A stretch of 64,000 nt of DNA from Candidatus Hydrogenedens sp. (lineage in GTDB: Bacteria; Hydrogenedentota; Hydrogenedentia; Hydrogenedentales; Hydrogenedentaceae): assembly GCA_049968235.1 (NCBI GenBank), contig JBMFRC010000005.1, positions 121,444 to 185,443 on the forward strand, written 5' to 3'. Positions 14,964-17,034 of this stretch are shown here, piece by piece (positions within the stretch are counted from its first letter, which is position 1; each line of letters opens with the position of its first letter). Position numbers and translations under genes: made by a program. The notes beneath the pieces were generated by a model. The model was not told the origin of the DNA and searched no databases. It saw only the letters and a program-made list of their open reading frames with translations.

Positions 14964-15107
14964 ATGAAAAGGTTAATACTATATTCATCGGGCTATACTT
15001 TATCTATCTATCTATCTATCTATCTATCTATCACTTCTTTCCATAAGTATTCTGATTTCAGGTTGTCCACCCCAAAATCCACCTCAGGAGTTTCCTCAAG
15101 TGTGTAA
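14964..15107 (+). CDS. signal-peptide segment of a phase-variable lipoprotein gene (frame +3), currently out of frame with the body
   Basis: AGGAGGA RBS 14951-57, ATG 14964. 'MKRLILYSSGYTL(SIYL)n...' is a positive n-region plus a hydrophobic h-region. Terminates at 15107 in the 8-repeat state. Confidence 0.55.
   Translation: MKRLILYSSGYTLSIYLSIYLSITSFHKYSDFRLSTPKSTSGVSSSV
15001..15032 (+). repeat. (TATC)8 tetranucleotide simple-sequence repeat inside the signal-peptide coding region
   Basis: tatctatctatctatctatctatctatctatc, 8 perfect units. Unit length 4, so gain or loss changes frame. Confidence 0.95.
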
Positions 15108-17034
15108 TTCTTGCTGTGATATAGAAAATTCCCTAAGTACTAATGCTTCTTGTGGTATTTTTTGTGAAGAGGGAGAATTAGGCAATATTACAGTATACCC
15201 ACAAAATTCTTGTTATTTAAAGGGAGAGAAAGTTCATGTATGGTTTGAAGGGACCAATCCGGATTATGATTTTTGTAACTGGTTATCCGATCCCCCTGAT
15301 ATTTATTCTGCTAACAATCCTTTACCTTACACAGTGGTTCAGATAAAAGACCAACCCCAGTCGCTAATTGCGTTTTGCCAGAAAAATAAGGTAACACTTA
15401 CAGTAGAGTGTGACTACGCTTCTTTTTTAATGCCTGGGAATAGATTAGAAGTTCCATCCGGAGCAAATGTGGCATATACCATAGTTAGTGGAGAACAGGT
15501 CCCCTGGCGTTATACTATAGAATATCCAGTAGGTTCCTCAATTGAAGTTTCTGCGATACCTGCCGATGGTTATATAATAGACTGGAAGGGGAATAGTGCT
15601 TGTGTTGGGGGATGTAAAGGTATTAGATATTATCAAAATAGTATTAATGTTATGATGGTGGGTAGTGTCTATTTAAAGCCTTGTGCAACCCACATAAACG
15701 ATTACGATTTTGATTTTCACACAATGACAATTAGTGCGGTTTATGGGGAGGGTATATTGTTAAGTGGCGGATATAATTATTCTCAGGGTGGGTGCGATAT
15801 ACCTCTATTTCCATATGCTTCTGCTTTATCTTATGGCAGATTTCGTGTAGCAGTAGTTCCAGAATCATTTAAATCTCTAGCATACTGGTATTGCTCTACA
15901 GAAAATCTTTATTGCCCTTCTGAAGTAGCAGAAGCAGTTTTCCCAATAAATGGAAATAGGACACATTCTGCTAACGCAGTTCTGGTTGATAAGGTTTTTT
16001 TAATTACTCCTGACCCATTAGGATTAAAGTACATAGACCATGTTCATTATTATGAAAATAATATGGGAGGTATAGCAAAAATAATTACTCCACTTTTATA
16101 TTCACCATCGAGTTTTGACCCATATCCTTTGGGGTGGAATCCTTTACCATACGGTTCTACCCATCCCAATGAATTCTGGTCGGTAGAAAATCTCTATGAG
16201 TGCCCAGAATGCAATGCGGTGGAACTTGAGCCCATTCCCTGTTTAGGTTCTGAATTCTTATATTGGGAAGTATCCCCTGATGGTGATGTTTGGATACCTG
16301 TCCCTCGCAATCCTATAAATCCAAATCTTACCGTATATATGAATTATTTTGGTTCATTTGACCCCATCTACTATCCTGGCGATATACATATTCCCAATGG
16401 AGGTGTCACCCTCTATGTTCGACCGGTATTCAAATTGTCTTGTGACTTCGTTTGTGGATATTGTTCCGGTCCTGATGGCCGTGATGTAATAATTGATATG
16501 TATGAAAATCCCGAGGTATTGTTGGGTGTTCAAATGTATCCTGGTCCAGCACCTGATTGCAGTAAATATGTAACAAACCAACAGAACCATCCTGCTCACT
16601 ATGAAAAAGAGGATTTATTACCATTTAATGTATTACAATGTCACCATGGAACTTTAAATTATCCGCACGATGGTTGGGCGATAGAGGACGGGATAGCGGA
16701 GTGTTATGATGCAGTAGAGCAAGCATATTCGGGAACGATAAATGTAACATCTGTATATCGTTGCCCGGTGAAGAATTCATCTGTTAATGGGAGTTTAACA
16801 AGCAAACATCTATTGGGCAAAGCATTTGACTTCGACCAACCAAGTTCAGAAGCCAACTGGCGTGTAGCTAAAACAGCATATGAATGTAATAATAATAATG
16901 AGATATTATTGTATTATTATGAGAACGGTAATAAAAAATCAGTAAGTTTTTATAAAGTTTCAGATGAAAATGAAAAACCATGGGAAAAATACATCTTCGA
17001 ACATGGACATGTTGGGATAGTTTCTGGAGATTAA
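15100..17034 (+). CDS. body of candidate phase-variable lipoprotein: Cys-rich extracellular region plus C-terminal peptidase M15A (LAS zinc D,D/L,D-peptidase, DUF882/YcbK-like) domain
   Basis: Frame +1 is open from 14977 with no start codon. It encodes '...LLSISILISGC PPQNPPQEF...' with lipobox I-S-G-C (Cys codon 15064-66) before the track GTG at 15100. C-terminus 'SVYRCPVKNSSVNGSLTSKHLLGKAFDFD' matches the SGYRxPxxNxxVGGxxxSxHxxGxAxD motif; 'HDGWAIED' and 'EHGH' supply the other Zn-ligand/ExxH motifs. Confidence 0.6.
   Translation: MCNSCCDIENSLSTNASCGIFCEEGELGNITVYPQNSCYLKGEKVHVWFEGTNPDYDFCNWLSDPPDIYSANNPLPYTVVQIKDQPQSLIAFCQKNKVTLTVECDYASFLMPGNRLEVPSGANVAYTIVSGEQVPWRYTIEYPVGSSIEVSAIPADGYIIDWKGNSACVGGCKGIRYYQNSINVMMVGSVYLKPCATHINDYDFDFHTMTISAVYGEGILLSGGYNYSQGGCDIPLFPYASALSYGRFRVAVVPESFKSLAYWYCSTENLYCPSEVAEAVFPINGNRTHSANAVLVDKVFLITPDPLGLKYIDHVHYYENNMGGIAKIITPLLYSPSSFDPYPLGWNPLPYGSTHPNEFWSVENLYECPECNAVELEPIPCLGSEFLYWEVSPDGDVWIPVPRNPINPNLTVYMNYFGSFDPIYYPGDIHIPNGGVTLYVRPVFKLSCDFVCGYCSGPDGRDVIIDMYENPEVLLGVQMYPGPAPDCSKYVTNQQNHPAHYEKEDLLPFNVLQCHHGTLNYPHDGWAIEDGIAECYDAVEQAYSGTINVTSVYRCPVKNSSVNGSLTSKHLLGKAFDFDQPSSEANWRVAKTAYECNNNNEILLYYYENGNKKSVSFYKVSDENEKPWEKYIFEHGHVGIVSGD

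Follow-up and report, generated by a model that had tools for sequence, protein, structure and literature searches.

Why should a bacterium keep eight perfect copies of a four-nucleotide repeat inside the signal-peptide coding region of a gene, at a length that cuts the gene off from its own start codon? The question is raised by a 64,000-nucleotide window from Candidatus Hydrogenedens sp. (assembly GCA_049968235.1, contig JBMFRC010000005.1, positions 121,444 to 185,443), in which the second gene of a three-gene operon, encoding a predicted lipoprotein with a peptidase domain, carries a (TATC)8 tract between its start codon and its body. The phylum, Hydrogenedentota, is without a cultured isolate and is predicted to be diderm (PMC11406978). 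Its members mostly dwell in bioreactors and sludge. A first-pass annotation, made from the sequence of the window alone, took the tract for a contingency locus. We consider it very probable that this is so: the locus is best explained as a simple-sequence contingency locus, with slipped-strand phase variation of translation that is probably layered on tuning of transcription through the operon promoter spacer.

The elements of the translational switch are as follows (window positions and strand):

14950-14956, + strand: Shine-Dalgarno sequence GAGGAGG, 7 nt ahead of the true start codon.
14964-15000, + strand: true ATG (14964-14966), n-region MKR and beginning of the hydrophobic h-region; same N-terminus as the deposited 688-residue ON protein (P0004).
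15001-15032, + strand: (TATC)8, encoding (SIYL)n; downstream frame OFF at 8 units.
15034-15066, + strand: remainder of the h-region, then lipobox L-I-S-G-C, both read in the body frame; Cys +1 codon TGT at 15064-15066.
15044-15046, + strand: TAA closing the leader open reading frame (ORF) in the 6/9/12-unit OFF class (...YHFFP*).
15105-15107, + strand: TAA that closes the 47-residue leader ORF at 8 units, as in the window; overlap with the annotated GTG (GTGTGTAA).
15100-17034, + strand: annotated ORF with GTG start, 644 residues, the body of the mature protein.

The tract is 100% perfect by Tandem Repeats Finder. It is the sole tetranucleotide repeat with at least four units in the window, and for a 16-nt piece of it, 100 dinucleotide-preserving shuffles give an expected count of 0.00. 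It begins 37 nt past the ATG, and its unit is not a multiple of three, the arrangement that marks a contingency locus. With a 4-nt unit, the tract reads as one and the same stop-free SIYL cycle whichever of the three frames is used; unit number therefore decides only the frame downstream. The frame of ATG 14964 encodes MKRLILYSSGYTL(SIYL)n and runs to the TAA at 15105-15107. The body frame comprises 666 codons, is open from 14977, and offers no ATG, GTG or TTG until GTG 15100; it reads ...LLSISILISGC-PPQNPPQEFPQ-VCNSCC.... The first-pass annotation had described this arrangement, from the ribosome-binding site ahead of ATG 14964, the repeat and the frame end at 15107 to the startless body frame with its LISGC lipobox (Cys codon 15064-66), and the sequence bears it out throughout.

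How does unit number set the frame? The gene was rebuilt in silico with 4 to 13 TATC units. With 4, 7, 10 or 13 units, start codon and body form a single ORF of 684-696 residues. The remaining lengths are OFF: 5, 8 or 11 units yield leader peptides of 43-51 residues, and 6, 9 or 12 units yield leader peptides of 24-32 residues. This arithmetic agrees with the proposal that removing one unit or adding two fuses the frames, and that 8 or 9 units leave the gene OFF. It had also been said that gene callers report only a GTG-started form, and indeed the 644-residue ORF is 100% identical to NCBI proteins MGC8738075.1 and MGC8844912.1. Public annotation of this allele therefore sees only a truncated, leaderless protein.

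Does unit number vary in nature? Within the window species it does. An exact-sequence look-up of the reconstructed ON proteins retrieved the 7-unit form (688 residues), until then only a prediction, as MGC9054264.1 from a sister metagenome-assembled genome (MAG), GCA_049971155.1. The 4,027-bp contig (L006) aligns to window positions 13214-17244 without a mismatch; its single gap corresponds to one TATC unit. The same look-up did not find the 4- and 10-unit forms of the window protein in the protein collection. A further MAG, GCA_049969095.1 (L005), has 8 units and is 99.74% identical to the window over 5.8 kb. L005 equals the window from 14250 to 18243, after which substitutions fall in clusters, 7 in 28 bp (window 18244-18271) and 8 in 66 bp (18855-18920), that look like recombination patches or strain mixing in assembly, not ordinary divergence.

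Orthologues extend the allele series to other lineages. A profile search identified P0005, a full-length orthologue with 45% protein identity to the window, whose locus has the same synteny and carries (TATC)4 at the same place, in frame (MNKELRSYFSKFIYLSIIITIVLLVSGC). Its 90% cluster includes truncated calls of 640 residues, and their DNA has (TATC)5, out of frame. The alleles are listed below, with the length of a T-run in the operon promoter (T11 and so on), which is taken up later.

Window species (100% protein identity), window and L005: 8 units, OFF; T11 (window; L005 ends short of the promoter).
Window species (100% protein identity), L006: 7 units, ON; T11.
P0003 lineage (about 72% to the window), L004 (= L007): 6 units, OFF; T9.
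P0002 lineage (72-74% to the window), L001-L003: no TATC, CT-rich with (TC)6, ON; T14 (L001).
P0005 lineage, strain group 1 (45% to the window), L009, L010 and L011: 4 units, ON; T12 (L009, L010).
P0005 lineage, strain group 2 (same 90% cluster as P0005), L014-L017: 5 units, OFF; T10 (L014-L016).
P0005 lineage (same 90% cluster as P0005), L019: 4 units, ON.
P0005 lineage, variant at about 90% nucleotide identity (same 90% cluster as P0005), L018: 4 units, ON; T12.
P0095 lineage (50% to P0005), L012 and L013: degenerate (TTATCTATTTCGC), ON.

The ON class is n = 1 mod 3 (n, number of units) in every lineage, and in two lineages unit-number polymorphism gives both in-frame and out-of-frame alleles. 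The second of these is the P0005 lineage. Strain group 1 comprises one metagenome contig and two single-cell genome contigs, identical across their overlaps; strain group 2 comprises contigs from four sample records, likewise identical across overlaps, of which L014 and L016 share length and range and are probably one contig. The 4-unit and 5-unit groups are 99.35-99.6% identical in DNA. Over 5.85 kb, L009 and L014 differ by 31 substitutions and three indels only: the TATC tract; the promoter T-run (T12 vs T10); and a T5/T4 run. L019, with 4 units, shows 7 mismatches in 2.8 kb to the 5-unit strains and 18 to the other 4-unit strains. From these alignments, OFF alleles appear to have arisen at least twice on near-identical backgrounds. 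The natural ON and OFF alleles of two lineages are the decisive support for the contingency-locus proposal.

In the P0002 orthologue, the place of TATC is taken by CT-rich CTTTCTCTCTTTCTCTCTCTCTCAC with (TC)6 (L001 6016-6045, and also L002 and L003). The gene is in frame in each of the three Logan contigs. One kind of repeat may have given way to another, like the CT repeats in Helicobacter pylori genes for outer-membrane proteins, or the switch may simply have been lost. For the L004 orthologue, exact look-up in the protein collection did not return 4-, 7- or 10-unit forms. Scans for related loci gave nothing beyond L007 (= L004) among genome contigs, and only a remote 35% match to an M15 peptidase (L008) among metagenome contigs.

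What maintains the tract? Flanking DNA has diverged by 12-20% between lineages, and the TATC tracts are uninterrupted; the chance of finding no difference in 24 nt is 0.005-0.045 per lineage pair. Such purity is the footprint to be expected if expansion and contraction are ongoing. The ratio of nonsynonymous to synonymous substitution rates (dN/dS) is 0.23-0.28, with dS about 0.73, for all three pairs among the orthologues at about 72%, including the pair in which both assemblies are OFF. These values show purifying selection on the lipoprotein body, in a gene that is not decaying despite its OFF alleles.

The lipobox region is constrained as well. In the 66 nt from the tract to the GTG, third positions of the body frame hold 6-8 of the 8-13 differences, and silent codon changes number 4-5 in the body frame vs 0-2 in the other frames. 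The sequence SILISGC is invariant in the three lineages at about 72% (window included) despite silent third-position changes. Orthologues at 45-50% carry LVSGC (LLVSGC in the 45% orthologue), and the linker PPQNPPQEFPQV, GTG included, is wholly absent from the 45% orthologue. The upstream coding signal, the kept lipobox, and the missing linker therefore single out the lipoprotein precursor, and not the GTG-started cytoplasmic protein, as the evolutionarily relevant product. The first-pass annotation had said what would speak against it: a repeat of invariant length, and a protein made from GTG 15100 without a signal peptide. Neither holds: unit number varies among relatives, and the DNA ahead of the GTG changes in the manner of coding sequence read in the body frame.

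What would be switched? Lipoprotein character was judged by a rule of the PROSITE PS51257 type: K or R within the first seven residues; six uncharged residues; a lipobox of the pattern [LVI][ASTVI][GAS]C; and the Cys by position 35. The ON forms with 4 and 7 units conform, with Cys at 29 and 33, respectively; the 10-unit form, with Cys at position 37, falls just beyond the rule. These forms, together with in-frame orthologues that carry the lipobox, support the earlier reading of the ON product as a lipoprotein precursor, with a positively charged n-region, a hydrophobic h-region and a lipobox; the protein would be lipidated and anchored in a membrane. The mature chain, encoded from the Cys codon at 15064 to 17031, is 656 residues long and contains 27 Cys. 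Its N-terminal two thirds, some 500 residues, correspond to a part that in distant homologues matches the divergent InlB B-repeat domain, and a peptidase domain follows:

16594-17031, + strand: LAS / peptidase M15 zinc-peptidase domain, C-terminal; Pfam match at 16699-16884.
16756 (YRCP), 16807-16809 (H570), 16828-16830 (D577) and 17002-17010 (HGH), + strand: peptidase motifs.

The domain scores 35.9 bits against Pfam PF08291 (Peptidase_M15_3; cut-off 23.2, E = 8.7e-09). The zinc-ligand motif H-x6-D...H-x-H is present as H570-LLGKAF-D577 and H635-G-H637, and in a 25-sequence alignment H570, D577 and one His of HGH (model residue H139) are invariant. From that alignment, residues 499-644 were modelled with a predicted local distance difference test score (pLDDT) of 82, and the modelled domain has the LAS fold. 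A full-length AlphaFold2 model from a 3-sequence alignment was unusable (pLDDT 29.7); the C-terminal domain had no match among PDB sequences at E up to 1; and NCBIfam returned nothing meaningful for four proteins of the locus. The domain probably cuts the peptide stems of peptidoglycan. The product would then be a membrane-anchored, disulfide-rich peptidoglycan peptidase, facing the periplasm or outward. The LAS and MEROPS M15 peptidases compared were the Streptomyces albus Zn DD-peptidase (1lbu), VanX and VanY, phage L-Ala-D-Glu endolysins, and MepA; unlike these, the Hydrogenedens domain is fused to about 500 Cys-rich, InlB-B-repeat-like residues and a predicted lipoprotein anchor.

In the 6-unit OFF orthologue of the P0003 lineage (L004), Pro replaces the first zinc-ligand His, H570 (TSKPLLGKAFDFD vs TSKHLLGKAFDFD); the peptidase of that lineage might be inactive, or the assembly might be in error here. 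Other lineages also carry stand-alone M15-domain paralogues of 99-142 residues, about 60% identical to the domain, one or two genes downstream:

L001 9443-9742; L009 8288-8677; L014 5647-6075; L018 5889-6218: stand-alone M15 paralogues.

In the window, a tblastn search returned only the domain itself and no stand-alone paralogue.

Is translation the only step under repeat control? A second repeat, absent from the first-pass annotation, lies in the promoter of the operon, whose other parts are these:

13308-13336, + strand: putative operon promoter, TTGACA (13308-13313), 17 nt, TATAAT (13331-13336).
13319-13329, + strand: T11 homopolymer in the promoter spacer, the sole homopolymer of at least 9 bases in the window.
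13379-14935, + strand: first operon gene, 518 residues, signal-peptide-like N-terminus, no family match.
17060-18328, + strand: third operon gene, 422 residues, signal-peptide-like N-terminus, no family match.

The promoter is the only 12/12 match to the sigma-70 consensus within 11700-19500, and stands 43 nt upstream of the first gene; by this match its spacer is AATAA-T11-G. Each of the four lineages that have the first operon gene keeps the sequence TTGACA-N5-poly-T ahead of it. The T-run itself differs in length from locus to locus (see the allele list), and differs, T12 vs T10, even between strains that are 99.35% identical. With the -10 element taken as TATAAT or TACAAT, the spacers measure 17 (window), 18, 16 and 14 nt. 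Judged by consensus geometry, the promoter would be crippled in the T10 strains, the very strains in which 5 units leave the gene OFF. The 64 kb contain just two long repeats, and this operon has both; in L001, L004 and L009 the two longest repeats occupy the same two homologous positions. A homopolymer between -35 and -10, polymorphic in length among close relatives, is the arrangement of a promoter-spacer switch, of which the sabA poly-T and the Neisseria porA and opc tracts are known cases.

The three operon genes are spaced by 28 and then 25 nt, and Pfam gave no match for the neighbours of the lipoprotein gene. The 518-residue protein has syntenic orthologues with 74%, 61% and 45% identity, and its look-up led to L006 only; the 422-residue protein was not on record by look-up. 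In L004, a C9 homopolymer (7300-7308) falls near codon 234 of a 423-residue gene (6598-7869) whose N-terminus resembles that of the 422-residue operon gene of the window (17060-18328); in that lineage, this run might be one more repeat able to shift a reading frame.

How might these parts work together? Slipped-strand mispairing during replication would gain or lose 4-nt units, and only n = 1 mod 3 (4, 7, 10...) would connect the start codon to the body. At n = 8, as in the window, ribosomes starting at 14964 would terminate at 15107 after a 47-residue peptide, leaving the exported lipoprotein unmade (OFF). The length of the T-run probably tunes or gates transcription of the three genes by way of the -35/-10 distance. 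We infer that switching is reversible, that it exceeds the background rate, and that a selective agent acts on it. A more ambitious and distinctly tentative proposal is that of a two-tier contingency operon, kept since the divergence at 45% identity, in which the T-run sets the level of transcription and the TATC tract turns translation ON or OFF. It would provide stochastic display of a lipid-anchored peptidoglycan hydrolase and two secreted partners in a free-living, uncultured phylum. If so, the payoff would be ecological and not immunological: either evasion of a phage or predator whose receptor is this protein, or bet-hedging over a costly weapon that attacks the cell walls of neighbours in the bioreactor biofilm.

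Several observations weigh against a contingency locus. The alleles are few, and each is a fixed assembly consensus. The window species is represented by only three assemblies (8, 8 and 7 units), with neighbouring accession prefixes, which may come from one study; in both of them that cover the promoter, the T-run is constant at T11. Tracts of 4-8 units are short relative to the classic Haemophilus loci, so rates may be modest. Two lineages have no tract and are constitutively in frame (L001-L003, CT-rich; L012 and L013, degenerate). Finally, an AGGAG (15086-15090) is placed 9 nt ahead of GTG 15100, and the leader ORF ends 5 nt past that GTG; some leaderless protein could be made in the 8-unit state.

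The small number of alleles, the short tracts and the two lineages without a tract would also fit a different account, in which the repeat is a mere mutational hotspot and the OFF alleles are loss-of-function frameshifts, or incipient pseudogenes, with no evolved reversible switch. The recurrence of n = 5, unchanged, in contigs from at least three samples fits it too. We nevertheless regard this account as improbable. A hotspot would leave unexplained a tract that is perfect at the same codon position down to 45% identity across diverged flanks; lineages with an OFF consensus retain the 666-codon open frame at a dN/dS of about 0.25, and their lipobox region is still constrained in the body frame. 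OFF alleles on near-identical backgrounds have at least two origins, and a second repeat, in the operon promoter, co-varies.

Considerably less probable is that the 8-unit state yields an altered product instead of none, through reinitiation at GTG 15100 (a leaderless cytoplasmic protein) or frame-slip at the repeat (low-level full-length protein). Reinitiation draws support from the AGGAG and the stop/start overlap (GTGTGTAA), both of which recur in two orthologues at about 72%. Those bases, however, are fixed by the encoded PQE[FL]PQVCN, and loss of the linker with its GTG from the 45% orthologue means that they are not a conserved feature. Reinitiation would be possible in the 5/8/11 class only, as the leader of the 6/9/12 class stops 54 nt earlier, and a 27-Cys protein with a peptidoglycan-peptidase fold would be unlikely to work in the cytoplasm. 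As to frame-slip, a known frameshift signal is not present.

That the true tract is always in frame, the gene being a constitutive lipoprotein gene misread by sequencing or assembly, is scarcely credible. In its favour, repeats are harder to assemble, and all of the sequences come from metagenome or single-cell assemblies. Against it, every allele recurs across separate assemblies: n = 8 is seen twice, n = 5 in contigs from three or more samples, and n = 4 in five contigs with three or more separate sources. Errors of +1, +1 and -1 units would be needed in different lineages, and a single read is longer than the 32-bp tract. Apart from the tract, the 7- and 8-unit assemblies agree along the whole 4-kb contig, including T11, which argues against indel-prone sequencing.

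Two other candidates were set aside. Programmed frameshifting or transcriptional slippage was rejected as the main cause: in-frame DNA alleles exist, and there is no known slippery or stimulatory signal. An array of regulator-binding sites (GATA/TATC direct repeats) is not favoured as the reason for conservation, because the n = 1 mod 3 frame rule explains the ON alleles; copy number, moreover, varies freely.

Phase variation of translation by the TATC tract has close precedents. The autB gene of Neisseria meningitidis contains AAGC repeats in the DNA of its signal sequence and is mostly OFF (PMC5118866). In both cases, an exported protein has a tetranucleotide repeat in the part of its gene that codes for the signal sequence, gain or loss of units moves the frame, annotated reference genomes show the gene N-terminally truncated or out of frame, and the gene is commonly OFF. 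AutB, from a host-restricted pathogen, is an autotransporter whose signal peptide is of type I, whereas the Hydrogenedens gene encodes a predicted lipoprotein with a LAS peptidase domain; its unit is TATC, and its tracts are shorter.

In H. pylori, sabA combines a promoter poly-T with CT repeats in the 5' coding region that are in frame at 7 or 10 units (PMC2715451). The likeness is that of two repeats on one locus, a promoter T-run and a frame-shifting 5' repeat, and the in-frame lengths of 7 and 10 recur; the (TC)6 stretch that stands in place of TATC in the L001 lineage likewise recalls the sabA CT repeats. The differences are that sabA is a single adhesin gene whose poly-T is near, and not demonstrably inside, the -35/-10 spacer, whereas in Hydrogenedens a 12/12 consensus promoter stands at the head of a three-gene operon and has its spacer filled by the T-run.

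The opa genes of Neisseria reportedly carry CTCTT pentamer repeats in the leader-peptide coding region. There, as here, the repeat encodes the hydrophobic core of the signal peptide and can be read in all frames, and the downstream frame sets ON or OFF; the opa genes differ in their pentamer unit, in forming a multi-copy family of outer-membrane proteins, and in serving host-cell adhesion. The Haemophilus influenzae contingency loci compared are lic1 (CAAT), lgtC (GACA) and mod (AGTC) (De Bolle et al. 2000, as cited in PMC11868660). These too are tetranucleotide tracts in 5' coding sequence that turn translation ON and OFF by slipped-strand mispairing; the tracts are usually much longer, with length-dependent rates, and the targets are cytoplasmic enzymes that modify lipooligosaccharide, or methyltransferases, and not signal peptides.

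The mechanism, then, is not new. What is new is the phylum, the habitat, the TATC unit, the target (an operon for a LAS-peptidase lipoprotein), and the depth to which both repeats are conserved. The locus adds no new principle; it is a clean case, from public data, of a contingency locus outside host-associated bacteria. To our knowledge, repeat-driven phase variation is documented almost entirely in host-adapted pathogens and commensals. Here, the ON and OFF alleles of an uncultured phylum can be read straight from public MAGs, single-cell genomes and metagenome contigs. The locus is also a ready marker for population-level switching in reactor time series, and for finding out whether phage, predators or neighbours select for it. 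It carries a warning as well: where such a tract is out of frame, gene callers yield a truncated and apparently cytoplasmic protein of the D-Ala-D-Ala carboxypeptidase family (644 or 640 residues).

Finally, where does the operon sit? The locus lies between rpoB/rpoC with a SurA-like peptidyl-prolyl isomerase gene on one side and enolase on the other. The order rpoBC, SurA-like gene, locus, enolase is kept in all related contigs of sufficient length, and the lipoprotein gene is therefore part of the core chromosome and not of an island. The block 12001-20000, which holds the SurA-like gene, the three-gene operon and an ORF of 260 residues, has a G+C content of 0.34-0.35; that of the rpoBC region is 0.40-0.43 and, like that of most of the remaining window, stands above the value for this block.

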